Shown here in pieces: positions 8,810-41,809 of a stretch of DNA of 64,000 nt. Position 1 is the first letter of the stretch; each line of letters starts with the position of its first letter. Made by a program: the position numbers and the translations under genes. The notes below the pieces were generated by a model. It was not told the DNA's origin. It saw only the letters and a program-made list of their open reading frames with translations, and made no database searches. Source of the DNA: an uncultured delta proteobacterium (lineage in GTDB: Bacteria > Desulfobacterota > Binatia > HRBIN30 > BPIQ01); NCBI GenBank assembly GCA_963761335.1, contig CAVXGR010000012.1:480001-544000 (forward strand), written 5' to 3'.

Positions 8810-11800
8810 CTACCACGTATCGACGCAGGGCCGCTTTTTTCCTCGCCGCGACTGCGGCGGCGGCAGGGATCGCAACAGAGAGACTACCCATTGCCGCGAG
8901 TCGGCCGGGTCGATGACGTCGTCGATCTCGAAGTGGCTGGCGCTGTTGAGCGCCTTGCCGTGCTCGTAGGCGCGCTCCACCATGTGCTCGAAGAGCTGGC
9001 GGCGCTGTAGCGGATCCTCCACCGCCTCGAGCTCCTTGCGGAAGCCGAGCTTCACGGCGCCCTCGAGACCCATGCCCCCGAACTCACCGGTGGGCCAGGA
9101 GACGGTGAACAGCGGCGCCTTGTGACTGCCGCCGCCCATCGCCTGCGCTCCGAGCCCGTACGACTTGCGCAGCACGATGGTGAAGAAGGGCACGCTCAGG
9201 TTGGCGCCGTTGACGAACATGCGGCAGCAGTGGCGCACCAGTGCCGTCCTCTCCGCCTCCGGGCCGACCATGATCCCGGGGGTGTCGCAGAGGAAGAGGA
9301 TGGGAATGTCGAAGGCGTCGCAGAGCTGCATGAAGCGGCTGGCCTTGTCGGCGGCGGCGGCATCGATGGCGCCGGAGAGGTGCTTCGGATTGTTGGCGAT
9401 CACGCCGAGCGGCCGGCCCTCGAGGCGGATGAAAGCGGTCACCATCCCCAGACCGAAGTGACGGCGCAGCTCCAGCATCGAGCCGCTGTCCGCGAGCGTC
9501 TCGATCACCGAGCCTATCTCGTACACACGCAGCCGCTTCTCCGGAATGATGCCGCGCAGCCGCCGCTGGTCGGCGCACTCCCAGAAGGCGATCGGCCCCT
9601 GGAAGTAGGACAGGTACTGCTTGGCGACACGCACCGCCGCGACCTCGTCGGCGACGGCGATGTCGACCACGCCGTTCGGCACCTGCACGTCCATCGGGCC
9701 GACGTCCTCCGGCCGGAAGACGCCGAGCCCGCCGCCCTCGATCATCGCCGGACCGCCCATGCCGATATTGGAGTTCTCGGTGGCGATCACCACGTCGCAG
9801 CAGCCGAGCAACGCCGCGTTGCCGGCAAAGCAGCGGCCCGAGTTGATTCCCACCAGCGGCACCAGACCGCTCAGCCGTCCGAAGAGATGAAAGGCCATGC
9901 AGTCGAGGCCGGCCACGCCGGGCGCATCGGTGTCGCCGGGACGCCCGCCGCCGCCCTCGGTGAAGAAGATCACCGGAGCGCGCAGCCGCTCGGCGAGCTC
10001 GAACATGCGGTCTTTCTTGCGGTGGTTCTGAAACCCCTGCGTCCCGGCGAGAACCGTGTAGTCGTACGACATCACCACGCAGCGGGCACCGGGCTCGTCG
10101 AAGAGATCGCCATTGACGCTGCCGACGCCGGCGACCAGCCCATCGGCCGGGGTGCGCTGGATCAGATCCTCGACGGAGCGCCGCTGCCGCTGCGCCGCGA
10201 TCGCCAGGCTGCCGTACTCGACGAAGCTGCCCGGGTCGCAGAGATCGGCGACGTTTTCCCGCGCCGTGCGCTGCCCCGTCCTGCGGCGGCGGGCCACCGC
10301 CTCGGGGCGCTCGGCGTCGCCGGTGAGCGCATGGCGACGGCGCACCTCTTCGAGATCGGCGCGGGCGGCGTCGAGATCGAGGGGCGCCGCTGTCGATACG
10401 TCCTCCTCCGGTGCTTCGCCGAGCTGAATGACCACCAGCACCTGCCCCTCCGGCACCGTATCACCCTGCGCCACTACCAGATGGCGCACCACGCCGCTCG
10501 CCGGTGCGTGCACGACGTGCTCCATCTTCATGGCGTTCATCACCAGCAGCGCCTGGCCCTGGCGGACCGTCTCGCCCTCGGCGATGTCGATGCTGACGAT
10601 CGTCCCCTGCATGGACGAGTGCACCGCCACTGCGTCCTCGAGGCCCGCCAGATCCAGCCCCGGAGCGACCTGCGGCCGCGCCTCGGGCGGGGCGGACGAC
10701 GGCCCCCTCCCCTCACCTTTCCCATAGGCGAGCACCGCCAGCGGATCGGTCGCATCGACAGTCGCGCCGGTGCGCGCGGCGGCCGGGACCTCGGCGACCG
10801 CCGCCGCCAGCTCGGCGGCGTGCTCCTCGACGAAGGCCGTGTGAATGCGATTGGCCGTGAAGTCCGGCTGCTCCAGCAGGCGCGTCAGAAACGGCGCATT
10901 GGTCGCCACGCCGTCCACCCGCAGCTCGGCGAGCGCCCGTCGCGCTCGAGCCACGGCATCCGCAAAGCTCGGGGAGCTCGAGTGCGCCACCAGCTTGATG
11001 AGCAGCGCATCGAAGTGGGGGTTGGTCTGGTAGCCGGGATGAGCAGCGGTATCGACGCGCACCCCCGGACCGCTGGGCAGCCGCAGTGCGCCGATCCTCC
11101 CGCTGGCGGGCCGCGGCGCGCCGTCGGCGCCGAAGGTCTCGGCGTTGATTCGCAGCTGAATCGCGAAGCCGCGCGGCGCCGGCATGCGTGCCGGCTCGAG
11201 GCCGACGGCAGCCAGTGAAGCGCCGGAGGCGAGCTCCAGCTGAACGCGCACCAGGTCGACGCCGGTCACCTCCTCGGTGACGGTGTGCTCGACCTGCAGC
11301 CGGGGGTTCGCCTCGATGAAGGCGTACGCCGGCATCGCCGCTCCGCCTTGCCCCCACGGGCCGTGCGTGTCGATCGCCTCGGCGTCGACGAGAAACTCGA
11401 ATGTTCCGACATTGCGATAGCCGATCTCCTCCGCCATGCGCACCGCGTGGGCCGTGAGCCGCGCCCGCAGCTCGGGAGACAGGCTCGGGCAGGGCGCGAT
11501 CTCCACGAGCTTCTGATGGCGCCGCTGTAGGCTGCACTCGCGTTCGCCGAGGTGGACGACGGCGCCGGAACCGTCGCCGACGATCTGCACCTCGACGTGC
11601 CGCGCCCGCGGCATGAGCTGCTCGACGTAGAGGTCGCCGTTGCCGAATGCCTGCATCGCCTCGGAGCGACAGCGGGCGTAGGCATCGGCGATCTCGCCGG
11701 CTCGATGCACGACGCGCATGCCCCGTCCGCCGCCGCCGGCGACAGCCTTGATGGCAACGGCGGCGTCCTCGTCGAGCGAGGACAGAAACTCGATGGCCTC

Positions 11801-12217
11801 CTCGATGGTCACCGCTGCGGCGGAGCCGCGCAGCACGGGGACGCCGCAGCGTTCCGCCAGCGCCCGCGCCCGCGTCTTGTCACCGAGGATCTCCAGGGTC
11901 TCGGGTCGCGGGCCGACGAAGGCGATCCCCTCGGCCTCCACCCGGCGCGCCAGCGCGGCGCTCTCGCTGAGAAAGCCGTAGCCGGGATGCAGCGCGTCGC
12001 AGCCGCAGCTCCTGGCGGCGCCGAGCAGCTGCTCGGCATCGAGATAGGCCGCCGCGCCGGTGCCGCGCAGCGGCCGCGCCTCGCCAGCGAGGTGGGCGTG
12101 CAGCGCCCCAGCATCGTCCTCCGAATAGACTGCCACGCTGCGCATCCCGAGCTCGGCCGCACCCCGCATGATGCGCACGGCGATCTCTCCGCGGTTGGCG
12201 ACGAGAAGCTTCTTCAT
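8810..12217 (-). CDS. Single-chain biotin-dependent acyl-CoA carboxylase (BC-BCCP-CT)
   Basis: KLLVANRGEIA, HPGYGFLSE, RECSLQRRHQK, NPRLQVEH, biotin site AMKME, C-terminal carboxyltransferase domain. Confidence 0.93.
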   Translation of the reverse strand: MKKLLVANRGEIAVRIMRGAAELGMRSVAVYSEDDAGALHAHLAGEARPLRGTGAAAYLDAEQLLGAARSCGCDALHPGYGFLSESAALARRVEAEGIAFVGPRPETLEILGDKTRARALAERCGVPVLRGSAAAVTIEEAIEFLSSLDEDAAVAIKAVAGGGGRGMRVVHRAGEIADAYARCRSEAMQAFGNGDLYVEQLMPRARHVEVQIVGDGSGAVVHLGERECSLQRRHQKLVEIAPCPSLSPELRARLTAHAVRMAEEIGYRNVGTFEFLVDAEAIDTHGPWGQGGAAMPAYAFIEANPRLQVEHTVTEEVTGVDLVRVQLELASGASLAAVGLEPARMPAPRGFAIQLRINAETFGADGAPRPASGRIGALRLPSGPGVRVDTAAHPGYQTNPHFDALLIKLVAHSSSPSFADAVARARRALAELRVDGVATNAPFLTRLLEQPDFTANRIHTAFVEEHAAELAAAVAEVPAAARTGATVDATDPLAVLAYGKGEGRGPSSAPPEARPQVAPGLDLAGLEDAVAVHSSMQGTIVSIDIAEGETVRQGQALLVMNAMKMEHVVHAPASGVVRHLVVAQGDTVPEGQVLVVIQLGEAPEEDVSTAAPLDLDAARADLEEVRRRHALTGDAERPEAVARRRRTGQRTARENVADLCDPGSFVEYGSLAIAAQRQRRSVEDLIQRTPADGLVAGVGSVNGDLFDEPGARCVVMSYDYTVLAGTQGFQNHRKKDRMFELAERLRAPVIFFTEGGGGRPGDTDAPGVAGLDCMAFHLFGRLSGLVPLVGINSGRCFAGNAALLGCCDVVIATENSNIGMGGPAMIEGGGLGVFRPEDVGPMDVQVPNGVVDIAVADEVAAVRVAKQYLSYFQGPIAFWECADQRRLRGIIPEKRLRVYEIGSVIETLADSGSMLELRRHFGLGMVTAFIRLEGRPLGVIANNPKHLSGAIDAAAADKASRFMQLCDAFDIPILFLCDTPGIMVGPEAERTALVRHCCRMFVNGANLSVPFFTIVLRKSYGLGAQAMGGGSHKAPLFTVSWPTGEFGGMGLEGAVKLGFRKELEAVEDPLQRRQLFEHMVERAYEHGKALNSASHFEIDDVIDPADSRQWVVSLLRSLPPPQSRRGKKRPCVDTW

Positions 12218-14576: not shown

Positions 14577-15125
14577 AGATCGATCCCAGAGGTGGCCGGG
14601 GGGAGGGGGTGGCAGCGGCCGTGCTCCGCTGCCACCCCGCGTTAATCGATTGCGGGATCTGCGTATCCCGCGCTTTCGCAAAGAGATCAGTGCACCGTGC
14701 GTGCCAATCTGTCGAAACGTCCGCAAGGCCGGACAGCATTGGATCTGGAGCCGCCGTGCTCCGCAGCGGTCGCGCTACGCAAGAGAGTGAATCGGGAGAT
14801 AGCGACGAGAAGGTGGCGTGATTCTCTGGAAGCAATCGCTTCCACCGCTGGCGCCTGGGTCTTCCGCATGCACGTGATCAGCGCCAGCGCATGTCATGAC
14901 CCGTACGTGCCCGCCGGCACCCGCTCGAGCAATTTTTTCTCATCCTTGCGGAAGCCGGCGGCGAGCCGCATCCGGCAAGGTAGGCGGTGCAAGGCGACCT
15001 TCCCTGGCAAGTCATATGCTGCCCGACATGGCCGGAGGGACTGAGATACGAAACGCTCACTGACGCCTGCCGATCTCGCGCATCCCGACCTCGTCGCCGG
15101 CGCTCTGAGCAGCCTCCTGCGCTGG

Positions 15126-16088
15126 GTGATGCATCCGGTGCGCAACACCCTGGACGACCTCGCCGTCTACGAGGGACGGCCAGTGGAAGAGCTTTTTCCG
15201 CCCCCCAAGCGCGTGCCGGATATGAGCGTGAGCGAGCGCTGGCGGCTCCCCGGTCTGATCAGCGAGGACATCCGCTTCCGCTCCCTCTACGTCCCACTCG
15301 AGCCCAAGTTTCGCCGGCGCTACCGGGAGCACTACCGCGAAGCGCACGACGTATGCGCGCGGCGGATCCGCCCGGCGGCGGCGCGCCGGCGCCCTCGCCT
15401 TCTGTACCTGCATGGGTACATGCAACCGGAAACCTATATCGAGGAGCTGGCGCTGCTGGCGACGATGGCGCTGCAGCTGAACGTGGAGGTCATCCAGATG
15501 CAGTTCCCCTACCACGGGCGCCGCACGCCGCGCGGCTCGTTCTTCAGCGGGGAGCTGTACTGGACGGCCGACCTGGTGCGCAGCTTCGAGGCCCTGCGCC
15601 AGACACTGCTCGACGCGCGCACCCTCTTGAGCTGCCTCCTCCGAGACGACGACCGCCCCGTGGGGATCTCGGGACTCAGCCTCGGCGGAGCGCTGGCGCT
15701 ATGCCTCACCTGCCTGGAAGGGAACTTCGCGTTCTCGGTGCCGCTGATCGCGCACATGGACCTGGAGGCCCTGGTCGCCGACGCGCCGGTTCTCGGCGGC
15801 ATGCGGCGCGATCTTCGCTCTTTCGGCTGGGGGCGCCAGGAGTTCGGCAAATTCGTCGCTGCCGTAGGCTGGCACGAGCTGCGTCCCAAGCTGCCCGCGG
15901 AGCGGATTCTGCTGATCGCCGCCTCGAACGACCGCTTCTTCGATCCGCGCCTGGTCGAGCGCCTGTGGAAGAGCTGGGGCAAGCCGGCGATCCGCTGGTA
16001 CCCCACCAGTCACATGGGCTTCATCGCGCACCTCCCGGAGGCACTGCGCCTGATGCGCCAGTTCATCGACCGACAGGCCGCCGAATGA
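15126..16088 (+). CDS. Alpha/beta hydrolase
   Basis: YLHGY, nucleophile GLSLGG, downstream Asp (NDRFF) and His (TSHMG). Confidence 0.82.
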   Translation: MMHPVRNTLDDLAVYEGRPVEELFPPPKRVPDMSVSERWRLPGLISEDIRFRSLYVPLEPKFRRRYREHYREAHDVCARRIRPAAARRRPRLLYLHGYMQPETYIEELALLATMALQLNVEVIQMQFPYHGRRTPRGSFFSGELYWTADLVRSFEALRQTLLDARTLLSCLLRDDDRPVGISGLSLGGALALCLTCLEGNFAFSVPLIAHMDLEALVADAPVLGGMRRDLRSFGWGRQEFGKFVAAVGWHELRPKLPAERILLIAASNDRFFDPRLVERLWKSWGKPAIRWYPTSHMGFIAHLPEALRLMRQFIDRQAAE

Positions 16089-16413
16089 AGCTCCCGTTTC
16101 CCGTTGCCTTCGCCTTCGGGAGCGGTGGCATCGACGACCTCGTTCGGGTCACCGAGCCGCGCATCGGCGCTCGGCTATGTCCCCGGCGACGCGCAGACCG
16201 ATGTCTCGTTGCTCTCCGTCCGATTCTCGTGCTGCCAAACGGGACAGTTCATACGCCCATCTCGAGCACGAGTCGGGCAGCTCGGCCGCCCGCACCCATC
16301 AGCGTGAGCGCTTCGTGCGCGCGCCGGAGATACGTTTCGCACTGCCCCGCCCGGCGTGCTTGCGAAGTCGTTCCGGAATGGATAGGGGGAGTGGAGATTC
16401 GGGCGCAACGCGC

Positions 16414-16674
16414 ATGGGGCACACGATCGACCGCAATCGGATCACCTGGGACGAGATCGATGGGGAGACCCTCATCATCGATACCGAGAGCGGCTACTAT
16501 TTCTCGCTCGACGGCGTCGGCAGTATCGTCTGGAGCATGCTGACGGCAGGCGCCGGCGAGGACGCCATCGTCGACAGGATCATCGCTGAGTACGACGTCG
16601 ATGGGTCGACGGTGCGAGAGGACGTGTACTCACTCGTCCAATCGTTGCAACGCGAGCAGCTGGTCGGTCGGTGA
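16414..16674 (+). CDS. PqqD-family RiPP recognition element (stand-alone RRE)
   Basis: 86 aa: WDEIDGETLIIDTESGYYFSLDGVGSIVWSML...IIAEYDVD...VREDVYSLVQSLQREQLV. Confidence 0.9.
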   Translation: MGHTIDRNRITWDEIDGETLIIDTESGYYFSLDGVGSIVWSMLTAGAGEDAIVDRIIAEYDVDGSTVREDVYSLVQSLQREQLVGR

Positions 16675-16693: not shown

Positions 16694-16849
16694 ATGAAGA
16701 AGCCGACGATGAATCGCGACGGAAATGCTGAGCGCGACACCCCTCAGAGCGACACGGCGCACCCGCTCACGATGCCGAAGAAGGTCTATCAGAAACCGGT
16801 GCTGTCGAAACACGAGCAACTGCACGGCATCGGGCTCGGCTCGCCCTGA
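16694..16849 (+). CDS. Putative RiPP precursor peptide (51 aa)
   Basis: MKKPTMNRDGNAERDTPQSDTAHPLTMPKKVYQKPVLSKHEQLHGIGLGSP; YxxPxL motif; AAGGAGG upstream; sits between two RRE-encoding genes. Confidence 0.8.
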   Translation: MKKPTMNRDGNAERDTPQSDTAHPLTMPKKVYQKPVLSKHEQLHGIGLGSP

Positions 16850-16917
16850 GCCCATCGCGTCCGCTTCGCTCCGCCTCGGCAACCCGGGCGGAGGTCCACA
16901 ACCTGCCGATCGGTACG

Positions 16918-18087
16918 GTGCCGATAAGCATCGTCATTGCGGTCCACCCCGGTCATCACCGCACCTCGTTCCTCGGACGTTGCCTGCAGGCGGTGGTGGA
17001 GCAGGTGAATCCGCCGCAGTGCCTCGAAGTGATCCTGGTCGGCGACGGCGTGCAACTCGACCCGTCGCTGGTGCCGGACGGCCTGGCGGCCCGCCGACAT
17101 TCGTTCTCCACCCCGGTCGGCGCCAGCGCGGCGCGCAATCAGGGGCTGCGCATGGCAACCGGCGAATGGGTGGCGTTTCTCGATGCCGACTGTTGGCCGC
17201 GACCGGACTGGCTGGAACGTCTGTACGCCGGTCTGGTTCGCGAAGGCGCCGCCGGCTGCGGCGGCAAGACCCTGCAGTCTCACGATCAACGCGCCCACGA
17301 CGATCGGCTGTCCGGGACCCGCGCCGTGTTGCCGTGCGCCGTGCTGAACAACGTGCTCTTCCGGCGCTCCGTGCTGGACGAGATCGGCGGCTTCGATGAG
17401 CGCCTGGTCGTCTACGCGGAAGAGCCCGACCTGTGCTGGCGGATTTGCCTGAAGGGGCATCGGATCGCCTTCGCGCCCGACGCGATCGTCGAGCACCAGA
17501 CCCACAAGACGACGCGCAAGTTCGTCTTCTACGGGCGGGCACTGCGGCAGCTGGAGTGCAAGTTCGGGCCGCTGCTCGATTTCTCCCGCCGCGAGGAGCT
17601 GCGCTGGATCGCCGAGTCGTATCGGCGCGCGCATGCCGGTGATGGCCCGCTGAGCCTGGCCCAGCGCGCCCGGATGTTGGCCATCGGTTGGGGATACGCT
17701 GGGCGCTGGGCGGCCGACCGGCTCGGGCGTCCGCCCCGGGTGCAAGCGCTGGACCTGTCCGAGCGCACGCTGCAGCAGCAGCATCTGATCCCGGCACTGG
17801 CCGTGGCGGTCGAGGGCCACAAGGTGACCAGACCCAATCACGTGCTCTGGTGGAAGGTAGAGGGTGGATGCTCCGTCCTCGACCTGGCGCATCGGACGCG
17901 CTTCGCGCTCACCGGTGCCGCCGCCGATATCTGGGTCGGCGTGATGAGCGGCCTCGGGGCGGACGAGCTGCGCGGACGACTGGCCGCCGACTTCGAGGTT
18001 CGCCCGGAGACGCTGGCCGCGGACATCGACGAGTTCCTGGGGGCGATGCTGCGCCAGGGCCTGCTGGCGCGCGCGGAGAGCGCATGA
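16918..18087 (+). CDS. Family 2 glycosyltransferase fused to C-terminal PqqD/RRE domain
   Basis: GASAARNQGL, FLDADC, GGFDERL..EEPDLCWR; C-terminal VLDLAHRTRFALTGAAADIW...LAADFEV...LAADIDEFLGAMLRQGLL. Confidence 0.85.
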   Translation: MPISIVIAVHPGHHRTSFLGRCLQAVVEQVNPPQCLEVILVGDGVQLDPSLVPDGLAARRHSFSTPVGASAARNQGLRMATGEWVAFLDADCWPRPDWLERLYAGLVREGAAGCGGKTLQSHDQRAHDDRLSGTRAVLPCAVLNNVLFRRSVLDEIGGFDERLVVYAEEPDLCWRICLKGHRIAFAPDAIVEHQTHKTTRKFVFYGRALRQLECKFGPLLDFSRREELRWIAESYRRAHAGDGPLSLAQRARMLAIGWGYAGRWAADRLGRPPRVQALDLSERTLQQQHLIPALAVAVEGHKVTRPNHVLWWKVEGGCSVLDLAHRTRFALTGAAADIWVGVMSGLGADELRGRLAADFEVRPETLAADIDEFLGAMLRQGLLARAESA

Positions 18088-18659
18088 CCACCGAGTCGCG
18101 AGGCGCCGCCGCCCGGCGGCTGCGCGACACCTTCGCAGCGCACAAAGGAGAGAGCTGGCTGCGCTTTCAGGGCCGTAGCATGCTGCCGATGCTGCGCGAT
18201 GGCGATCTGCTGCGGGTTCGCCATGGCCCGCCATCCGCGATCGGCTGCGGCGCCATCGTGGTGTTCAACGACGGCGACTCGACCATCGTGCACCGCTTGC
18301 TCTATCGCCGGGGACGCGGAGCGGTTCTGGTGACCAAGGGGGACAATGCGTGGCGGATCGATCGGCCGCTCGGTCCCGAGCAGGTGATCGGCGCCGTATG
18401 CGAGATCCGGCGCGGTGCGCACCGCATTCCAGTCGACCGCGGTGAGTGGGGGCGGGTATCGCGCGGCATCGCGCTGGCGTCGATGCTCGAGGGGCTCGCG
18501 TACGCGGGCGCGGTTGCCATCCGCCGGCGGTGCCTTCCGCACCCCCTGGTCGGTCGCCTCGGCGAAGCGCGCCTTCTGGCGGCCGCCGGACGGTGCCGGC
18601 GCGCCATCCTCGATCGGGTGTTGCGCGTCACGGGCGCGACCGGCGCGGCCGCGGAATGA
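18084..18659 (+). CDS. S24/S26-family peptidase
   Basis: GRSMLPMLRDGD, IVHRL, TKGDNA...D..VIGAV; ATGA coupling with upstream gene. Confidence 0.85.
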   Translation: MTTESRGAAARRLRDTFAAHKGESWLRFQGRSMLPMLRDGDLLRVRHGPPSAIGCGAIVVFNDGDSTIVHRLLYRRGRGAVLVTKGDNAWRIDRPLGPEQVIGAVCEIRRGAHRIPVDRGEWGRVSRGIALASMLEGLAYAGAVAIRRRCLPHPLVGRLGEARLLAAAGRCRRAILDRVLRVTGATGAAAE

Positions 18660-18669
18660 GCCGTAGACC

Positions 18670-19698
18670 GTGACGGCAGGCGAATACTTCGAGGCCGTGC
18701 AGGCAGCCTATGCGGACGCCGAGCGGCGCGCCGGCGGGCCGGTGGAGCGCGTGTTTCGCGTCGCCGGGCATCCGCTCCGCCTGCGCTTCGCCGGGCCCGC
18801 CATGGTTTCGGACGCCACCGCCGCCTTCGACCATCTGCCGTCGTCCGGCGAGCGTGCCGAATTCTCCGTGTGTCTGTTCGATAGCGCCTCGACCGGAAGC
18901 GAGCTGCCGCCAATGCCGCGCTCGAGCGGGCCGCACGACGTGCGCGGCGATATTCCCGAGCTGTGCGACGAACGGTTTATCGTCAGCTACTTGCGTTGGA
19001 ACGGGGTGCTCGGCTTGCTCGACCGAAGCCGACGGCGGGCGCTCTTCTGGATTCGTGCCGCGAGCGATTTCCCGTTCAATGAACGCGGCTCGCCACTGCT
19101 GATGAGCCTCCAGGGCTGGCTGGCCGGCCACGATCTGCAGTTGATGCACGCCGGTGCCGTCGGCGGCGCCAACGGGGGCGTGCTGCTCTGCGGCCGTGGC
19201 GGTGCGGGGAAGTCGACCACCGCGATCGCCTGTCTCGTCGCCGGACTCTCGTATGTGGCGGACGACTACTGCGTGCTCGCCGCGCGGCCGCGGCCGGTGG
19301 CCCACAGCCTGTACAACTCCGGCAAGCTGCACTGCGCCGGACTGCACCGGTTCCCGGAGCTGTCCATCGGCGCGGCGTCTCGCGGCGGCGACGACAAGGC
19401 GCTCTTCTTCCTTCACGCACTCTACCCGGAGCGCATGGCCACCAGCGTGCCGATCCGGGCGCTGGTGCTTCCCGTCATCCACGACGGGGCCGACTGCACG
19501 CTCGAGCCCGTGCCGCGCGTCGAGGCGTTGCGCGCCATGGTGAGCAGCACCATCGCCCAGATTCCCGGCGCCAACGGGGGGGTGCTGACCGCCGGCGCGG
19601 CGTTCGTGCGGCAGCTACCCTGCTACCAACTGCGGATCGGCTCCGACCCGACGCGCATCGCCGCGCGCATTGAGGGCCTGCTGCGCGGGGGCATATGA
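18670..19698 (+). CDS. HPr kinase-like P-loop kinase
   Basis: LMHAGAV...GVLLCGRGGAGKSTT...LSYVADD. Confidence 0.85.
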   Translation: MTAGEYFEAVQAAYADAERRAGGPVERVFRVAGHPLRLRFAGPAMVSDATAAFDHLPSSGERAEFSVCLFDSASTGSELPPMPRSSGPHDVRGDIPELCDERFIVSYLRWNGVLGLLDRSRRRALFWIRAASDFPFNERGSPLLMSLQGWLAGHDLQLMHAGAVGGANGGVLLCGRGGAGKSTTAIACLVAGLSYVADDYCVLAARPRPVAHSLYNSGKLHCAGLHRFPELSIGAASRGGDDKALFFLHALYPERMATSVPIRALVLPVIHDGADCTLEPVPRVEALRAMVSSTIAQIPGANGGVLTAGAAFVRQLPCYQLRIGSDPTRIAARIEGLLRGGI

Positions 19699-20813
19699 AG
19701 ATCCTCATGGCCACCGAGCGGTTCCTCCCCGAGGTCGGCGGCGTCGAGGTGTTCACCGCTCGACTCGCGTCGGCGCTGAAGGAACGCGGCCACGAAATCG
19801 CTGTCGTCACCTCGCGCAGCGGACTCACCGAATGCGAGGAGGACCGCCAGGGAGCTGTGCCGGTGTACCGCCTGCCGTTCGAGGCCAGCCTGCGCGCGCG
19901 CGACTACAGACGCGTCATCGCCCTGCGCCGGCGACTCGCCGCGCTCAAGGAGAACCTGCGTCCGGACGTCGTGCACCTCAACACGTCGGGGGCGAGCCTG
20001 CTGTTCCATCTGCTCACTCGCCGAACCGCGCCTGCTCCCCTCGTCCTCACCGTCCACTGGCTGCCCAATTCGGAGAGCGTGGCCGTGGTCTGCGCCCAGG
20101 CGCTCGCCGCGGCCGACTGGATCGTGGGGGTAACGCGTGGATGCCTGGACGAGGCCCTGCTGCTCAATCCGACCATCGCCAACCGCTCATCTGTCGTCTA
20201 CAACAGTCTGCCGCCCATCACTCTCTCGCCCACACCGCTTCGCTTCGATCCGCCGAAGCTGCTCTGTCTCGGCCGGCTCGAGGCGCAGAAGGGTTTTGAC
20301 GTCGCGCTACACGCCCTGGCCGAGGTGTGCCGGCACTTCCCGACGGCGCGGCTCACGGTCGCCGGCGATGGCACCCAGCGTCCGGCCCTCGAAAGCCTTG
20401 CCATCGAGCTCGGCCTGACGGCCGCCGTCCGCTTCATGGGTTGGGTCGCGCCCGACGACGTCCCTCAGCTGATCAACGAGCACACCGTGGTCGTGATGCC
20501 ATCGCGTTACGAGCCTTTTGGTCTGGTGGCGCTGCAGGCGGCGCAGATGTGCCGGCCGCTGGTGGCATCGCGCATCGCGGGACTGTCGGAAGTCGTCCGC
20601 GACGGCGATACCGGCCTGCTCTGCGACGCCAACGACCCCGACGCATTCGCCGCCGCGATCAACGTCCTGCTTCGGCAACCAGCCGCCGCCGCGCACATGG
20701 GCCAGCGGTCACGCAACTACGTCGAGACGGCCTTCCGCTGGGACCAGCAGGTGAGCGCCTATGAGACCCTCTTCCGCAGGGTCCACGCCCAAGCCAGCGG
20801 TCCGTACGCCTGA
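19695..20813 (+). CDS. Family 4 glycosyltransferase
   Basis: GGVE, GRLEAQKG, PSRYEPFGLVALQA, GLSEVVRDGDTG. Confidence 0.92.
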   Translation: MKILMATERFLPEVGGVEVFTARLASALKERGHEIAVVTSRSGLTECEEDRQGAVPVYRLPFEASLRARDYRRVIALRRRLAALKENLRPDVVHLNTSGASLLFHLLTRRTAPAPLVLTVHWLPNSESVAVVCAQALAAADWIVGVTRGCLDEALLLNPTIANRSSVVYNSLPPITLSPTPLRFDPPKLLCLGRLEAQKGFDVALHALAEVCRHFPTARLTVAGDGTQRPALESLAIELGLTAAVRFMGWVAPDDVPQLINEHTVVVMPSRYEPFGLVALQAAQMCRPLVASRIAGLSEVVRDGDTGLLCDANDPDAFAAAINVLLRQPAAAAHMGQRSRNYVETAFRWDQQVSAYETLFRRVHAQASGPYA

Positions 20814-20987: not shown

Positions 20988-21414
20988 GGGCGCCGCGTGC
21001 ACGCGCGCACGGCGCTCGCGCAGCAGCGTCTCGTACGCCACTTCCTGCGTCAGTGGGTGCTTGAATGTGTACTCGGCCACTGGGTAGAGCGCCTGCTCGT
21101 AGACGAACTCGGCCTGTGCCAGGGTGCGCAGCGCGGCGGGCACGTCGGTCGCGGCCGCGTCTCGCGGCGCGACGTCGGCGAGCACCTGCGTCAGCACCGG
21201 CTCGCTGAGCTCCTTGCCGATCACCGCAGCGGTCTGCAGCACCTGCTTCTCGCGCTCTGCCAATCGATCGATGCGTGCCGCCAACACGGCGTGCACGCTG
21301 GCGGGGACGTCGAGCGTCTTCGAGCTCGAACTGCCGGCGCAGCACGCGCAGCGACACGCGGCCGTTCTCCTGCAGGTGGTTCCGCGCTTCGCTGATGATC
21401 TCGAGCAGCCTCAT
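20988..21414 (-). pseudogene. Chimeric remnant of cyclase/ATPase/TPR paralog
   Basis: MRLLEIISEARNHLQENGRVSLRVLRRQFELED joined out of frame to VPASVHAVLAARIDRL...YTFKHPLTQEVAY, then truncated. Confidence 0.75.
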
Positions 21415-24400
21415 GACGTCGATTCCGACAACAGGAGGGAAATGCGTTGCGCCTGCAACGGCGCGCCGATCTGTTCGTAAAGTTGATGAGATTCGCGCAG
21501 CAACTGCACGCGCGTCGCGTCATCGCCGAGGAGGGCTGCCAGCTCGGCGCGCCACTCGCAGAGCGCGGGCGCGAGTGTCTTCGCTCCCGTGCGTTCGATC
21601 AGTGCGGCTGCGCTGGCAAGGGCAGCTTCCGCGGCATCGCGGGCCGCCGCTCCGTCGCGGCGGAGGAGGGCGCGCGCCATGATGCCGTGGGCCTCGGCTT
21701 CGGCGTGGCCACCCAGCGAGCGTCGGCAGAGCGCGATCGCCTCCTCGGCCGCCGCCAGCGCGGCCGACAGATCACCGGCTTGCAGCAGGGCCCAGGCCAA
21801 AAGCATCGCGGAATCGCCCGCAGCGTGCTTTTCCACACGCCCGCAGATCTCCAGGGCGGCACGCGCCGGCGCGATGGCGTCGGCCGCCCGCCCCGCCGCG
21901 AGGTGTGCGCGGGCGAAGGCAAACTGCGCGTACCCGGCCAGCGACAACGGCTCCCCCAGCTTGCGGCCGATCTCTTCGAGCTGCCGCGCGCTGGTGAGTG
22001 CCCGGTCTGCGTCATGAGCGTTGTGGTAGGCCGCGGCCGCCACGACCATGGCGTACCCGATCAACTCCGGTGTGCCGTCCTCCTCGAGCAGACGGCGGGT
22101 GCGTGCGAGCGCTTCGAGCCCCTCCGGCAAGCGGCCCACCCACGTGAGGCAATAGCTGCGCCAGAACGAGAGCAGGGAATAGGGATTGAAGCCAATGATC
22201 CATTCCCCGGAAGGAATGTGGCGCGGAAAGCGAGCAAGCGCTTCCTCCGCCATCTGGAGTGCCTCGGGGAATCGTGCGGCAAAGCTGAGCGCGTCGACGA
22301 GGTAGACACAGGCATTGGCCTGCATCCCAACGTCATCGATCTCGAGTGCCACGCGCCGGTTCTCGATTGCCACCTCGAGATACTCCGCCACGTCGCCGTC
22401 GCCACAGCGCGCGCGGCCATAGACCATCGACAGGCTCAGATGGGCGCGGCGATCGCCAATCGCGTTGGCGAGGGTCTGCCCTTCCTCCAAGAGGGCCTTC
22501 GCCTCGTCGAGCCCCGTGCCGACCCGCCAGCTCCCGTTCAGCAGCTGCATACAGGCAACGATGCCGAGGGCGGCTGCCTCGTGGTCGTCCGGTAGCTGAC
22601 GCAAGAGCTTGCGCACTTGGCCCCAGTGGTGAGTTGCGGCGGCAAAGTCGGTGCGCCCCACCCACTCGGCCGCGCGCCGGTGCCAGCGCGCCCCGCTGAG
22701 CGCCTCGCCGGCCTCCTCCCAGTGGTGCGCCAGCAGCGCCGCGCGTTCGTCGAGATGGTCAGGGTCGTGCAGCTCGATCGCCCGCGCCACGGCGGCGTGC
22801 ACCTGACGGCGACGCTCCTTGAGCTGGCTGCCGAGCGCCACTTCCTGGGTGAGCGGATGCTTGAAGGCGTACTCAACGACCGGATAGATCGCCTGCTCGT
22901 GGATGAACTCGGCACGGCGCAGAGCCGCGAGTGCGGCCTTCAGCTCTTCGGTGGGTAGCTCCGCCACTGCCGCCAGCAACGGCTCGGGGAAGTCCTTGCC
23001 GATCACCGACGCCACTTGCAGCAGCCGCTTCTCGCGCTCCGGCAGCCGGTCGATGCGCGCCGCCAGTACCGCCTGCACGGTGGCCGGCACCGTGAGCTCC
23101 TCGATCGGCGTCACCAGGCGATACGCACCGCGTTCGCCTTCGAGATGCCCCGACTCGATGAGTGTCTGCGCTACCTCCTCGGTGAAGAACGGGTTGCCGC
23201 CGGTACGCGCGTGGATCGGCGCCGTCAGGGCGGCCAGGCTCGGGTCGGTGCCGAGCAGATCCACCAGCAACTCGCCGATCGCGTCGCGCCCGAGCGGCGT
23301 CAGCGGGATCTGCCGGTACCACGACTTCTGCATCCAGTCGGCGCGGTGCTCGGGGCGGAAGTTGAGCAGCAGGAGATTGCGGCTGCCGGCGCGCGCGTCG
23401 ACCATGTGCTCGAGGAACTCGCCGCTCGCATCGTCGAGCCAGTGCAGGTCCTCGACCATCGTCACCGTCGGCTGCTCCTCGCTGACGCTCTGGATCACCT
23501 GACGCATCACGGCGATGATCTGGCGCTGGCGCGCCTCGGGGTCGAGCCGCGGCGCCGGGCGCTGCGAATCGGCGACGCCGAGGAAATCGAAGAGCAGCGG
23601 CAGCGCGTCGGCAAAGCTGTTGTCGAGCAGCACCATGCGCCCGGCGATCTTCTCGCGCGCGCTGCGATCGTCGTCCTCGAGCGTGATGCCGTAGTAGGCG
23701 CGGAACACCTCGAGGATGGGTAGGAAGGGGATGTTGCGGCCGTGGGCGACGGCGCGGCCCTCGTAGACGTGCATGCCGCGGGCGCGGCAGCGCTCGAGGA
23801 ACTCGAAGCACAGGCGACTCTTGCCGGTGCCGGCATCGGCCACGATCCCCACCACCTGGCCGTTGCCCGCCGCAGTCTGCTCGAGCGCATCCTCGAGCGT
23901 GCGCAGATCGGCGGCGCGCCCGACGAAGCGCGAGAGGCCGCGGGCGCGTGAGATGTCGAAGCGCGAACGCGCGGCGCCGATGCCGACGAGGCGGTGGACG
24001 CGCACCGGCTCCGCGACGCCCTTGACGCGAAAGTCGCCCAGATCCTCCAGCGCGAAGTAGCCGCCGGCGAGCGCCGCCGTCGCCGCCGTAAGGTAACACG
24101 AGTCCGGCGAGGCGAGCGCTTCCATCCGCTGTGCCAGACCCACCGTGTGGCCCTGCGCCGTGTAGTCCATGCGCAGGTCATCGCCGATCTTGCCGACCAC
24201 GACCGCGCCCGAGTTGATGCCCATGCGGGTCGAGAAGCCGACGCCGTGCTCGCGCTTCACCTCGGTGGCGTAGCGGGCGATCTCGTCGCGCAGATGCAGC
24301 GCCGCGTAGCAGGCGCGCTGGGCGTGATCCTCGTGGGCGATCGGCGCGCCGAAGAGCGCCATGATCCCGTCGCCGGTGTACTGGTTCAGGGTGCCCTCGA

Positions 24401-24839
24401 AGCGGTGCACGCCTTCGGTGAGGATCTGAAAGAAGCGGTCGAGGATCGTGTGCCACGCTTCCGGGTCGAGCTGTTCAGCGAGTTCCATCGACCCTTTCAC
24501 GTCGGCGAACAGAACGGTGACCTGCTTGCGCTCGCCTTCGAGAGCGGACTTCGATTGCAGGATTTTGTCGGCGAGGTGTTTGGGGGTGTAGGCGCGAGGA
24601 CTGCTGCCAAGTCGAGAGTCGACAGTCGAGAGTCGAGAGTTTTCGACCTTCCCATTTTTGACTGTAGACTGTTGACTGTCGACTAGATTCACGCCGCACT
24701 CGCCGCAGAACTTCGCACCGGAGGGCAGGTTGCTACCGCAGCTCTCGCAGCGCCGGGCGATGGGCGTTCCGCACTCGAGGCAGAACTTCACCCGCTCGGG
24801 GTTGACGTTGCCGCAACTTGCGCAGTTCATGGGAGTCAC
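21411..24839 (-). CDS. Double zinc ribbon - class III adenylate/guanylate cyclase - ATPase - TPR protein (intact)
   Basis: Four CxxC; ERKQVTVLFADVKGS; TGDG; Walker A ADAGTGKSRL; EDLHWLD; GGNPFF; helical-repeat C-terminus. Confidence 0.92.
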   Translation of the reverse strand: MTPMNCASCGNVNPERVKFCLECGTPIARRCESCGSNLPSGAKFCGECGVNLVDSQQSTVKNGKVENSRLSTVDSRLGSSPRAYTPKHLADKILQSKSALEGERKQVTVLFADVKGSMELAEQLDPEAWHTILDRFFQILTEGVHRFEGTLNQYTGDGIMALFGAPIAHEDHAQRACYAALHLRDEIARYATEVKREHGVGFSTRMGINSGAVVVGKIGDDLRMDYTAQGHTVGLAQRMEALASPDSCYLTAATAALAGGYFALEDLGDFRVKGVAEPVRVHRLVGIGAARSRFDISRARGLSRFVGRAADLRTLEDALEQTAAGNGQVVGIVADAGTGKSRLCFEFLERCRARGMHVYEGRAVAHGRNIPFLPILEVFRAYYGITLEDDDRSAREKIAGRMVLLDNSFADALPLLFDFLGVADSQRPAPRLDPEARQRQIIAVMRQVIQSVSEEQPTVTMVEDLHWLDDASGEFLEHMVDARAGSRNLLLLNFRPEHRADWMQKSWYRQIPLTPLGRDAIGELLVDLLGTDPSLAALTAPIHARTGGNPFFTEEVAQTLIESGHLEGERGAYRLVTPIEELTVPATVQAVLAARIDRLPEREKRLLQVASVIGKDFPEPLLAAVAELPTEELKAALAALRRAEFIHEQAIYPVVEYAFKHPLTQEVALGSQLKERRRQVHAAVARAIELHDPDHLDERAALLAHHWEEAGEALSGARWHRRAAEWVGRTDFAAATHHWGQVRKLLRQLPDDHEAAALGIVACMQLLNGSWRVGTGLDEAKALLEEGQTLANAIGDRRAHLSLSMVYGRARCGDGDVAEYLEVAIENRRVALEIDDVGMQANACVYLVDALSFAARFPEALQMAEEALARFPRHIPSGEWIIGFNPYSLLSFWRSYCLTWVGRLPEGLEALARTRRLLEEDGTPELIGYAMVVAAAAYHNAHDADRALTSARQLEEIGRKLGEPLSLAGYAQFAFARAHLAAGRAADAIAPARAALEICGRVEKHAAGDSAMLLAWALLQAGDLSAALAAAEEAIALCRRSLGGHAEAEAHGIMARALLRRDGAAARDAAEAALASAAALIERTGAKTLAPALCEWRAELAALLGDDATRVQLLRESHQLYEQIGAPLQAQRISLLLSESTS
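24611..24685. repeat. Heptamer-repeat hairpin within coding linker
   Basis: gtcgaga/gtcgaca units facing tgactgt/agactgt/cgact units; encodes VDSQQSTV...SRLSTVDSRL. Confidence 0.75.
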
Positions 24840-26714: not shown

Positions 26715-28545
26715 TTACGGCAACTCCGCCAGCAACCCTGCCACGCGCTCGGCATGTCCCGTCGCGCCCATCTCCTCGAAGAGGTCCTGGGCTTCGATCA
26801 GCAACTTGCGGTGGCGGATCGAATCGGAGAGCAGGCCCGCTAGGCGCGCGCGTGCGATTACCTGCCGCGTTTCACGATTCTCGGTTGCGCACGATCGGCA
26901 ATTCACCGCCTCACGACTCGAGGTCCAGCACCAGCCGCTCCGCCGGGTCCGGGGCACCCATGGCGCGGTACATGGCCTCCCCGTTCCCGCCTGGCGCCCA
27001 CTGGCCAGGCAGTCGGTCAGGCGTTCTTCACAGGCCGCATACTCCCCGCTCAAGAGCGAGGCGAACGCGAGATTGCTGGACGCGGTGATCTGCGAGTAGC
27101 GGGTGCCGACGGCGGCGGCGATCTCGACCGCCTCGGCAGCGGCGCGTAGCAGGTCGGGAACTACCGCTCCGGATGTCCCGCGGCCGAAGTAGCCGACGAT
27201 GCTCGGCGTGCCGAGCACCCAGGCGAGGTTTTCCTGCATCGCGTGCTCGCGGGCCAGCCGGAGTGCGCGATCCATCCGCGGCCAGCACTCGTCGAAGCGG
27301 CCGGCCTGGGCGAGCGCGATGGCGGACACCTGCTCCGCCCAAACCAACGGGCTGAAGCTGACGATCTCGCGCCCGACCCGCGGATCGCCCTCGGTCCGGT
27401 CCACAATCCGATCCAACACCACGAGTGCGTCCCGAATTCGCCCGGCGACGAGACTCCAGTAGGCGGTCGTAACGTCGATCGCGAGGATCTCGCCGCGTCC
27501 CAACGTGTGGTCGACGAGACCGGCGCATTCCGTGGCGACATCGAGAGCTGCTTGGGCGCGTCCGAGCACGCCGTAGTGGCCGGCAACGCCGACGAGCAGA
27601 TTGGCGACGGCGGCGGGACGCCTCAGCTCCCGGGCCAGTGCGCGGCCCTCGTCGAGCGCCGCGCGCACATCCTCCTCGCTCATGCCGAGGCGCCAGCTAC
27701 CGCCGGCCAGGACGGCGCGGCAGGCGCGCAAGCACGCTTCCTTGCTGGGCTCATCGGGTAGCCCGCGACCCAGCTCGCGCACCTTGGGCAGCGGTGTGCG
27801 CCGTGAGGTACACCTTGCCCGGCTCGGCGATCTGTTCCATGCGCGCCGCGAGCCCGACGGTGTGTCCCTGCGCCGTATAGTCCATGCGCAAGTCATCGCC
27901 GATCTTGCCGACGATCACCTCGCCGGAGTTGATGCCCAGGCGCGCCGAGAAGCTGAGCCCACGGCGCAGGCGCAGCTCGTTGGCATAGCCGCGCAGGCCG
28001 TCCAGCAGGTGCAACGCCGCGTAGCAGGCGCGGCGCGCATGATCCTCGTGCGTGATGGGCGCACCAAACAGCGCCATGATGCCGTCGCCGGTGTATTGGT
28101 TCACCGTGCCTTCGAAGCGGTGCACGCCTTCGGTGAGGATCTGGAAGAAGCGGTCGAGGATCTGATGCCATTCTTCGGGATCCACTTGCTCCGCGAGCTC
28201 CATCGATCCCTTCACGTCGGCGAACAGGACGGTCACCTGCTTGCGCTCGCCTTCGAGGGCGGAGCGGCTCTGTAGGATCTTCTCCGCGAGATGGCGGGGC
28301 GTGTAGGAAAGGGGGTTGGAGGTTACGGGGTTGGGGGTTGGGGAAGATCCAGAATCCCCTAACCCCGAGCCCCCCAACCCCTTGACCCCTTGCAGTTGCG
28401 CGCCGCATTCGTCGCAGAACTTTTGACCGGCCGGATTTGTGGCGCCGCACGACGAGCAAACGGGCTCGCTCACCAGCGACGTCGCACAAGCGCCGCAGAA
28501 CTTGGCGCCCTCTCGATTCTCATGCCCGCATGCCGTACAACGCAT
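26715..28545 (-). pseudogene. Zinc ribbon-cyclase-TPR paralog with ATPase region deleted
   Basis: N-terminal part is highly similar to 21411-24839 up to YLTAHTAA, then jumps out of frame (~27790) to the TPR region, ending LFEEMGATGHAERV. Confidence 0.8.
28311..28389. repeat. G-rich/C-rich short-repeat hairpin in coding linker
   Basis: ggggttg-like units facing aacccc-like units; encodes GVKGLGGSGLG...PTPNPVTSNP before YTPRHLA. Confidence 0.7.
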
Positions 28546-40865: not shown

Positions 40866-41809
40866 CCGTTGTGGTCCGGCTGTGCCGCAGCCACCCGTTC
40901 CTTGCGCAGGCCGGTGGGGAAATTGCCAACCAGCTCGGCCGCGAGAAGCGGCAGACGCAGGAGCGTCCACTTGAACAGCACGATGACGCAGCGGAGCCTC
41001 TCGTCGGCGGGCAGCGGTACCCGGTGGATCGTGCGAAGGTAGCGTGACAGATGGGTCCAGTGACGCCTCGAGGTCATCCCCGCGTTCCGCGGGTCGTAGA
41101 ACACCGCCAGCTCGGCGTCGTGGCGACAGACATGTTGCGGCCGGGACGGATGGTCGCGCCAATAGAAGAGCGGTTCGTGAACTTCGTGAAGCTCTCCGCG
41201 CAGCGCCAGCTCGGCGATCAGAATGACGTCGGAAGCGGGGTAGGACCCGTGCAGCTGGGTGCGCTTCAAGACCTCATGCCGGATCACACCGAACTGGAGA
41301 TGGCAGTAACCCGAATTCCTGACCACCGCATAAAAGCGTTCATGCGGGTGGGGCGAGGTCGCGTCGGCGGGTTCGCGATAGGTGCCCGTGACCTCGCCGT
41401 GGTCGTCGATGACGTACGATTGCGGATAGGCGAGGATCGCTCTCGGGTTGCGCTCGAGCACCTCGATACAGCGCCGGACGCAGTCCGGTGCGCACACGTC
41501 GTCGTATGCCGCCCACTTGAAGTACGGCGAGTGCGCCAGCTCGGAAACCCGGTTGAAGTTCCAGGCGGCGCCGCGGTTGTCGTTCGACCGATGGTATTGG
41601 ATTCGAGGGTCGCGGCGCACATAGGATTCGCAGATTGCTTCGGTCGCGTCGGTCGAGCCGTTGTCGGAGATGATCAAGACGAAGTCGGTGAATGTCTGGC
41701 CGAGCAGGGAATCGATTGCTTGCGCCAGGTAACGCTCGCCATTATACACCGGCAAACCGATGGAAAGTCGGGGTGACCGAGATGCACCGCAAGGTTCGGG
41801 ACGTTCCAT
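40862..41809 (-). CDS. Family 2 glycosyltransferase
   Basis: SIGLPVYNGERYL, SDNGSTD, WAAYDD. Confidence 0.9.
   Translation of the reverse strand: MERPEPCGASRSPRLSIGLPVYNGERYLAQAIDSLLGQTFTDFVLIISDNGSTDATEAICESYVRRDPRIQYHRSNDNRGAAWNFNRVSELAHSPYFKWAAYDDVCAPDCVRRCIEVLERNPRAILAYPQSYVIDDHGEVTGTYREPADATSPHPHERFYAVVRNSGYCHLQFGVIRHEVLKRTQLHGSYPASDVILIAELALRGELHEVHEPLFYWRDHPSRPQHVCRHDAELAVFYDPRNAGMTSRRHWTHLSRYLRTIHRVPLPADERLRCVIVLFKWTLLRLPLLAAELVGNFPTGLRKERVAAAQPDHNG

Follow-up and report, generated by a model that had tools for sequence, protein, structure and literature searches.

The window analysed here is a stretch of 64,000 nucleotides of an uncultured delta proteobacterium (contig CAVXGR010000012.1, positions 480,001 to 544,000, written below as C12:480001-544000), and it carries a compact set of genes centred on a glycosyltransferase fused to a RiPP recognition element (RRE), RiPPs being peptides made by ribosomes and modified after translation. 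Unless a contig is named, positions are those of the window. In the order of the forward strand, the genes encode a stand-alone RRE, a short precursor peptide, the fusion protein, a serine peptidase, an HprK-like kinase and a family 4 glycosyltransferase (GT4). The fusion gene occupies 16918-18087 (+), starts with GTG and encodes 389 aa in the frame with high third-position GC. Upstream of this GTG the frame stays open with no further ATG, GTG or TTG, and the N-termini of related proteins begin at the same point (MVDISVVIAV or MPISIIIAV). Its Pfam domains are PF00535 (Glycos_transf_2), which spans residues 13-133 with 68.8 bits (E 7.1e-19; cut-off 23.3), and PF05402 (PqqD), which spans residues 328-383 with 28.9 bits (E 1.4e-6; cut-off 23.4). 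With these matches, the conserved motifs and the structural models, the protein can be divided into a family 2 glycosyltransferase (GT2) catalytic domain of the GT-A type (residues 1-215, 16918..17562), a linker with helices in the model (residues 216-300, 17563..17817) and a C-terminal RRE domain (residues 301-389 plus the stop codon, 17818..18087), the last delimited by PF05402, profile comparison, fold and residue D369.

A full-length AlphaFold2 (AF2) model, built on an alignment of 16 sequences, reached a predicted local distance difference test score (pLDDT) of 79.2, with residues 1-100 at 85-95. It consists of the GT-A domain, three linker helices (199-216, 224-240 and 247-268), strands at 309-314, 317-322 and 327-332, and then the RRE helices (333-343, 348-359 and 363-379). 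In the GT2 part, D43, the DxD motif D89-A-D91, E169 and D171 are invariant in 16/16 family members, and its best Foldseek matches are TarP, TarS, RmlT and AvpGT (E 1e-11 to 1e-13), with ppGalNAc-T also among the matches. The Pfam match, the DxD motif and the GT-A fold together identify the N-terminal part as a GT2 enzyme. Conservation, expressed as the mean majority fraction, amounts to 0.77 in the GT2 part, 0.72 in the linker and 0.72 in the RRE (15 of 85 RRE columns invariant), which by this measure suggests that the RRE domain is constrained about as much as the linker.

The fold of the C-terminal domain was addressed by profile comparison and by structure prediction. A profile of the 16-member family matched the solved structures of TbiB1 (E 9.3e-7, positions 312-385), LppB (9x8z_B, 1.5e-4) and TfuB1 (1.8e-3). 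When residues 290-389 were modelled alone with AF2, on an alignment of seven sequences, the best model had a pLDDT of 90.7 (the other four 72-76) and showed strands followed by helices at model positions 44-54, 59-70 and 74-90. Its top Foldseek match is leader-bound TbiB1 (5v1v_A, E 2.6e-6, TM 0.73/0.83, rmsd 1.5 A over 81 columns), followed by TfuB1 (6jx3_B), the PbtF RRE (8t19) and PqqD (5sxy), and, further down the list, by RRE domains within cyclodehydratases, sactisynthases and lanthipeptide dehydratases. The domain passes the curated PqqD threshold and, as modelled, superposes on solved RREs, indicating that it has an RRE fold. In LppB, the leader tyrosine is hydrogen-bonded by D70, which lies where helix 3 begins, and an Asp does likewise in an actinobacterial lasso RRE-leader complex (PMC13381572). 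The corresponding residue of the fusion is D369, which is invariant in 16/16 family members and aligns with the Asp of TbiB1 and with D70 of the stand-alone RRE, the latter aligned to the Asp of LppB 9x8z_B; the step from D369 to D70 of LppB is a mapping by sequence alignment only.

The stand-alone RRE (16414..16674, +, 86 aa) is a PqqD-family protein (PF05402 E 8.1e-16) of the lasso-B1/LppB-like kind. Compared with the sequences of solved structures, it is closest to TbiB1 (2.4e-13), followed by PbaB1 (6.8e-8) and LppB (1.8e-5), and it scores 53.7 bits against the NCBIfam model lasso_PqqD_Strm, whose cut-off of 70 is not reached. The fused and the free RRE are 26% identical (E 3e-13). An earlier annotation of this stretch, made from the letters alone and called here the original prediction, had described a GT2 domain followed by a PqqD-like domain of about 90 residues with an RRE fold, next to a second stand-alone RRE. 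Both Pfam domains were found where it placed them, the profile and model comparisons returned RREs, with TbiB1 as the best match, which bears out the predicted fold, and the stand-alone RRE is real. It did not notice the precursor gene, nor the likeness to the nearest published system, the clusters for linear polyphosphorylated peptides (LPPs) described by Popov (2026) in Bacillota and stated there as restricted to that phylum (PMC13381572).

The precursor gene (16694..16849, +) lies between the two RRE genes and encodes a peptide of 51 aa. Its call rests on the ribosome-binding site, a strong GGAGGA 8 nt upstream of the ATG, and on conservation. The peptide ends in ...KKVYQKPVLSKHEQLHGIGLGSP and carries the motif YxxPxL at residues 32-37. 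By tblastn, its C-terminal block was found in 1-3 tandem copies directly upstream of the GT2-RRE gene in nine loci (the window, L010, L011, L012, L013, L014, L015, L016 and G032; L009 was left out, as only 81 nt are present upstream), with different tails on the tandem copies. Among 12 aligned copies, 525 differences fall at third codon positions vs 321 and 183 at the other two, and 381 codon differences are synonymous. A database profile search returned 82 small-protein relatives of 37-81 aa, of which 81 contain Y/F/W-x-x-P-x-L, then, at a fixed distance, G-I-G-[LI]-G and a tail that is short and variable; as a consensus, their leaders read KKxYxKPxLxK[YH][ED]QLHGIGLG. The endings, counted from the last Gly, are most often GS (25), GSPD (8), GSP (7), GIY (4), GD (4) and GVH (3), with 28 different endings in 81 peptides. 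Directly after the precursor stop, a GC-rich hairpin of 7+3 pairs (16869-16893) was considered as an attenuator and rejected, as it folds no better than shuffled sequence (z-score 0.20). A search for a sigma-70-like promoter found none, and terminator-like sites occur at chance level.

The action of the fused enzyme on a leader peptide is well motivated, because its C-terminal domain has the RRE fold, a YxxPxL precursor conserved together with the enzyme is encoded directly upstream, and D369 is invariant. The leader-dependent glycosylation put forward in the original prediction is therefore plausible on sequence grounds. To place the modified residues, the register of the LPP precursor LppA, in which the leader Tyr is position -16 and the Ser at +3 is Tyr+18 (PMC13381572), was applied to the 81 peptides. 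The predicted position -3 is Gly in 75/81 and -2 is Ile in 80/81, while the predicted position -1 (Tyr+15) is Gly in 76, Ala in 4 and Thr in 1, that is, small in all 81. Position +1 is Leu, Ile, Val or Ala, position +2 is Gly in 81/81, and the predicted position +3 (Tyr+18) is Ser in 47, Thr in 4 and Tyr in 5, with another residue or none in the other 25 of 81. The predicted cores have 2-7 residues, with three residues in 30 peptides, four in 34 and five in 15. For the window precursor, we infer from this register a cut after G47, a core of LGSP and Ser50 as the phospho-acceptor.

Downstream of the fusion lies a gene for a soluble archaeal-type signal-peptidase-I-like serine peptidase of 191 aa (18084..18659, +; S26B, S24/S26-like, LppS-like; PF00717 E 1.7e-6), whose ATG overlaps the stop of the GT2-RRE gene as ATGA. 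Its only NCBIfam match is TIGR02228 (sigpep_I_arch), at 37.3 bits under a cut-off of 51.85, and its residues S32, H70 and D93 are invariant in 6/6 homologues. The next gene (18670..19698, +) encodes an HprK-like peptide kinase of 342 aa, LppK/BsfK-like, which was assigned by motif spacing and by weak PF07475 and TIGR04352 matches, all below cut-off. Its motif H160-G175-G178-G180-K181-S182-D198-D199 has the same spacing as H148-G163-G166-G168-K169-S170-D186-D187 of BsfK (PMC10368454). Judged from these alignments, both the kinase and the peptidase possess their catalytic motifs. The GT4 glycosyltransferase of 372 aa (19695..20813, +; PF00534 E 4.4e-39, PF13439) begins at an ATGA overlap with the kinase stop.

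The kinase, the B1-type RRE and the YxxPxL leader also occur in phosphorylated lasso peptide clusters. A lasso cluster as such was rejected, since the window has no cyclase or B2 gene (no match to PF00733 or PF13471 within C12:480001-544000) and at most seven residues follow the leader. The sole Transglut_core3 (lasso B2-type) match in the genome lies at C12:566377-566538 (-), about 22 kb past the window end, with 29.8 bits and within an ORF of 494 aa. The locus might instead be the remnant of such a cluster, having lost the cyclase and most of the core, and either be non-functional or make peptides that serve only as decoys or regulators. Its lasso-like leader, with YxxPxL and a Gly at Tyr+17, a free RRE closest to lasso B1 proteins, and the missing cyclase and B2 genes are what a remnant could leave behind. 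However, all genes of the locus are intact and conserved at 38-85% identity in many metagenome loci, the 82 precursor relatives hold a constant register, the differences between copies are biased to third positions, and tandem precursor copies bear different tails, so that a decayed cluster is very unlikely.

The gene order is conserved beyond the window. The peptidase follows the GT2-RRE in 7/7 loci that reach past its 3' end (the window, L009, L010, L011, L017, L018 and G032), and an HprK-like gene follows the peptidase in the same seven, with only its first 32 residues present in L010. After the kinase, L011 has a GT4 homologue (69% identity), but G032 has none there. Two contigs of separate samples (L010:1136-2848 and L011:540-2252) encode GT2, RRE and peptidase as one protein of 571 aa, identical in both; the close relative L009 keeps the GT2-RRE and the peptidase as two genes, and the database protein P0017 also spans the GT2-RRE C-terminus into the peptidase. 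These two metagenome triple fusions suggest that the peptidase receives the peptide from the fused RRE and not from the free one. This bears on a further proposal of the original prediction, in which the free RRE served the peptidase or the kinase. A discrete RRE does serve both kinds of enzyme in published relatives (BsfB1 with BsfK, LppB with LppS), which agrees with the proposal, but the natural fusions point to the fused RRE as the partner of the peptidase. The window, L010, L015 and G032 each have a free RRE gene upstream of their precursor genes, with fragments visible in L011 and L016, while the contigs of L013 and L014 are too short to judge.

A close tie between the fused RRE and the peptidase could also mean that this domain is mainly an adaptor that gives the leader to the peptidase, as LppB does for LppS, with the GT2 domain acting on an acceptor other than a peptide, for example a glycan or a lipid-linked intermediate, and the fusion working as a scaffold. 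The natural GT2-RRE-peptidase fusion and the ATGA coupling of the two genes are in line with this, as are the dependence of LppS on its RRE and the position of LPP clusters within polysaccharide loci (PMC13381572), and the structural neighbours TarP, TarS and RmlT of the GT2 domain are polymer glycosyltransferases. However, GT2 and RRE are fused in 38/38 diverse representatives, mostly without a fused peptidase, the second GT2-RRE locus of this genome lacks such a peptidase (tblastn with the window peptidase finds only the window copy), and a free RRE is already there for the peptidase. We therefore consider a scaffold role for the fusion unlikely.

The 38 representatives come from an exhaustive profile search that returned 292 proteins at E <= 1e-30; they are those of 347-450 aa picked by length from the best 150 of these matches. 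All 38 have GT2 with a C-terminal PqqD at E <= 0.01, and in 36/38 PqqD exceeds its Pfam cut-off. In a database clustered at 90%, GT2 plus PqqD was found in 16/120 matches listed, all of them metagenomic and none with a functional name. Of 10 representatives looked up, three are proteins from NCBI metagenome-assembled genomes named 'PqqD family peptide modification chaperone' (two from Omnitrophota and one from Margulisiibacteriota), two bear JGI glycosyltransferase names and five are unnamed. The close GT2-RRE family was found only in G032 among 41 relatives, and a scan of species-representative genomes gave GT2-only relatives and no fusion. In a sample of 401 genomes of the phylum, a full-length match appeared only in the window's own genome; this is weak evidence of rarity, because scoring covered only four candidates in each genome and overlooked the second copy that this very genome carries. 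Parts of the stretch occur in three soil-metagenome DNA runs from a single study, and no RNA run was listed.

The second fusion in this genome is distant (403 aa, about 30% identical) and lies at C9:102000-119000 (L056), with a near-identical copy on C28 (L057). Its locus contains an HprK-like gene, GT4 genes, a gene for a protein of 546 aa with a GH123-N-like stretch and two free PqqD genes, and has no signal-peptidase-like gene; directly 3' of one of the PqqD genes, an ORF of 54 aa carries VYEKPRLRRYDQI and then a tail of 11 residues. PqqD proteins with the C-terminal pattern [YF]xxPxLxxYxD[ML]xD[LI]LxLDP, which looks like a leader-like ligand joined to the RRE that would bind it, are encoded at C4:13548-14100 (-), C16:352758-353225 (-) and C12:808024-808467 (+), among varied sets of GT2, GT4, NTP_transf_5 (PF14907) and HprK-like genes. 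A different RRE architecture, with PqqD proteins ending in Arg-Arg and then a hydrophobic stretch (...RRxxIxxLGL...LPxVE...), occurs at C11:198723-199265 (+), C6 ~41300-41800 (+) and C5 ~217100-217700 (-).

The peptide could have another role, as a primer or anchor whose core phosphoserine starts a larger phosphate-linked glycan built by the GT2 and the GT4; the outcome would be a polysaccharide linked to the peptide and akin to those of capsule or exopolysaccharide biology. Such a role would suit an operon with two glycosyltransferases and a GT2 domain that resembles enzymes decorating polyol-phosphate polymers. At least five more loci of the genome combine PqqD genes with genes for a GT2 or a GT4, and three of these (C9, C12:808 kb and C4) add an HprK-like kinase or NTP_transf_5 gene; LPP and paeninodin clusters co-localise with capsule loci (PMC13381572). 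However, neither a polymerase nor a flippase nor an exporter was seen beside the operon, a dedicated leader peptidase argues for a small released product, and two glycosyltransferases are the only ones present. A peptide-primed polysaccharide is thus an improbable outcome of this operon.

We favour, with a probability of roughly 60%, the view that the fusion glycosylates a peptide under the guidance of its leader and belongs to a variant LPP pathway. In this pathway, the 51-aa precursor would dock on the RREs through its YxxPxL motif, and the HprK-like kinase, probably aided by the free RRE as in the Bsf system, would phosphorylate Ser50, which lies at Tyr+18 in the register of Ser3 of LppA. 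The GT2 domain, which its own RRE would keep attached to this leader, would then add a sugar to either the short core or the phosphate on it, taking the place held by LppN or PsmN in LPP and pseudomycoidin clusters, and the GT4 could extend this sugar. Finally, the peptidase, translationally coupled to the GT2-RRE or fused to it in some relatives, would cut after the small residue G47 and release a modified peptide of 2-7 residues.

Several observations weigh against this proposal. The solved relatives of the GT2 domain are mostly teichoic-acid or glycan (polymer) transferases, though ppGalNAc-transferases match too. The fusion models were built on shallow alignments (16 and 7 sequences), only one of the five RRE models reached its high pLDDT, and with the NCBIfam model of lasso B1 proteins the fused RRE reaches only 16.8 bits. 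As to the substrate, Tyr+18 is neither Ser nor Thr nor Tyr in 25/81 peptides, and 13/81 have no hydroxyl residue at all after GxG; moreover, Thr or Tyr at that position is not accepted by LppK (PMC13381572). In the closest relative, L012 (77% identity), the place upstream of the precursor is taken by the end of a GT4-like gene (its C-terminus) and not by a free RRE. Regarding the gene content, a scan confined to the genes around the operon found no exporter, and an LppN-type nucleotidyltransferase (PF14907) is absent from the cluster. None of the genome's five PF14907 matches falls within the window, and the nearest one on the same contig is at C12:811 kb, about 267 kb past the window end.

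If the proposal of a leader-guided glycosyltransferase is correct, its product might be a peptide of 3-5 residues, for example Leu-Gly-Ser-Pro, which would be among the smallest known ribosomal products that depend on an RRE. In this tentative and rather doubtful extension, a phosphate or polyphosphate on the Ser would be glycosylated by the tethered GT2 and extended by the GT4, the leader of about 48 residues would be a disposable scaffold, and the 28 tails in 81 peptides would encode a family of molecules. The locus supplies what listings of such fusions lacked, namely a precursor family (82 peptides with a fixed register), a set of partner enzymes and a natural triple fusion, so that binding and activity become directly testable. 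It would also extend the LPP family beyond Bacillota to an uncultured soil lineage, in a version with classical glycosyltransferases for the unexplained nucleotidyltransferase step, and could help to identify the final modification that the LPP authors did not find. A leader-guided GT2 could, if true, be a useful tool for the targeted glycosylation of peptides.

Among the other genes of the window, an alpha/beta hydrolase gene (15126..16088, +, 320 aa; PF09752 ABHD18 E 1e-7; high GC3 frame) precedes the stand-alone RRE, and it has a weak RcgR-like NCBIfam match under the cut-off. In G032 its place is taken by a PQQ-dependent dehydrogenase, while the contigs of other relatives are too short to judge, and its membership in the cluster is uncertain. 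The ORF at 14987-16543 (518 aa) overlies this hydrolase gene in the wrong frame and was rejected as a gene. Elsewhere in the window, a protein of 1135 aa encoded at 8810-12217 (-) is a fully fused acyl-CoA carboxylase with biotin carboxylase, biotinyl carrier and carboxyltransferase domains. Two genes, at 21411-24839 (-) and 27751-28545 (-), encode proteins with double zinc ribbons at the N-terminus and an adenylate/guanylate cyclase domain after them, and the longer one (21411-24839) runs on into an AAA ATPase and TPR repeats.

MftF is a GT2 glycosyltransferase that acts in the mycofactocin pathway, which starts from a RiPP precursor, and it has no RRE. Its family, TIGR03965, is the best-scoring curated NCBIfam match of the window GT2 domain (E 4.1e-36), but this identity was rejected, as the match reaches 124.8 bits where the family cut-off is 280; mycofactocin genes are also absent at the window locus. 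Fusions of RREs to glycosyltransferases have been noted in genome mining, as a new architecture in the RRE-Finder study of 2020, where the text of Fig. S7 names Hassallia byssoidea (PMC7470986), and by Bregman et al. (2025), who list RREs fused to PF00535 (PMC12710340). Both proposed them as marks of unknown RiPP clusters (PMC7470986, PMC12710340). The window protein shares this general architecture of an RRE with a GT2-family domain, the likeness to the Hassallia byssoidea protein being one of described architecture only; a precursor family, a pathway and a function are not given in the available text of those papers. No characterised RRE-dependent glycosyltransferase was found in the literature, subscription journals not being covered.

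The phosphorylated lasso peptides (paeninodin, pseudomycoidin and Bsf) resemble the window system in the YxxPxL leader for a B1-type RRE and in the HprK-like kinase with the motif H...GxxGxGKS...DD. In Bsf, the RRE BsfB1 accelerates the kinase BsfK and Ser3 of the core is phosphorylated (PMC10368454), and in pseudomycoidin the phosphorylation is followed by the addition of one or two hexoses (PMC6993621). However, the window lacks their PF00733 cyclase and PF13471 B2 peptidase, and its core is too short and without an acidic ring-closing residue, which in lasso cores is an Asp or Glu at position 7-9. Where pseudomycoidin has a PsmN-type nucleotidyltransferase, a classical GT2 and GT4 would add the sugar here.

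The greatest similarity was found with the LPP clusters, whose core genes LppA/K/B/S/D/N include an exporter and the nucleotidyltransferase LppN, of unassigned role (PMC13381572). There, the precursor motif is YxxPxVLxHQxIxFETxxS, the discrete RRE is LppB, the HprK-like LppK polyphosphorylates Ser3 of the LppA core, and cleavage by LppS requires its RRE LppB (PMC13381572). The window precursor likewise combines a YxxP-type leader with a conserved stretch, and has a Ser at a distance of 18 residues from the Tyr. The window peptidase places its triad at S32/H70/D93 vs S29/H68/D93 in LppS, a likeness by triad and not by direct LppS homology (PMC13381572). Both systems share an HprK-like kinase motif, a discrete RRE, a soluble peptidase that in the window adjoins an RRE, the lack of a macrolactam cyclase, and 1-3 precursor genes per cluster with variable C-termini. 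In contrast, the window operon has the GT2-RRE and the GT4 where LppN and an MsbA-like exporter would be, a second RRE that is fused to an enzyme, and relatives in some of which GT2, RRE and peptidase are fused. The predicted cores of 2-7 residues and precursors of 37-81 aa differ from the 45-residue core of LppA and the precursors of 35-200 aa, the leader consensus KKxYxKPxLxK[YH][ED]QLHGIGLG differs from the LPP motif, and the host, of an uncultured soil lineage, stands outside Bacillota. In the LPP neighbourhood table, Glycos_transf_2 occurs 19 times around 126 peptidase genes, and a glycosyltransferase-RRE fusion is not mentioned in the main text (PMC13381572). On the strength of the YxxP-type leader, catalytic motifs and partner genes, the window operon appears to be a variant of the LPP clusters in which classical glycosyltransferases, one of them bearing its own RRE, stand in the place of the nucleotidyltransferase.

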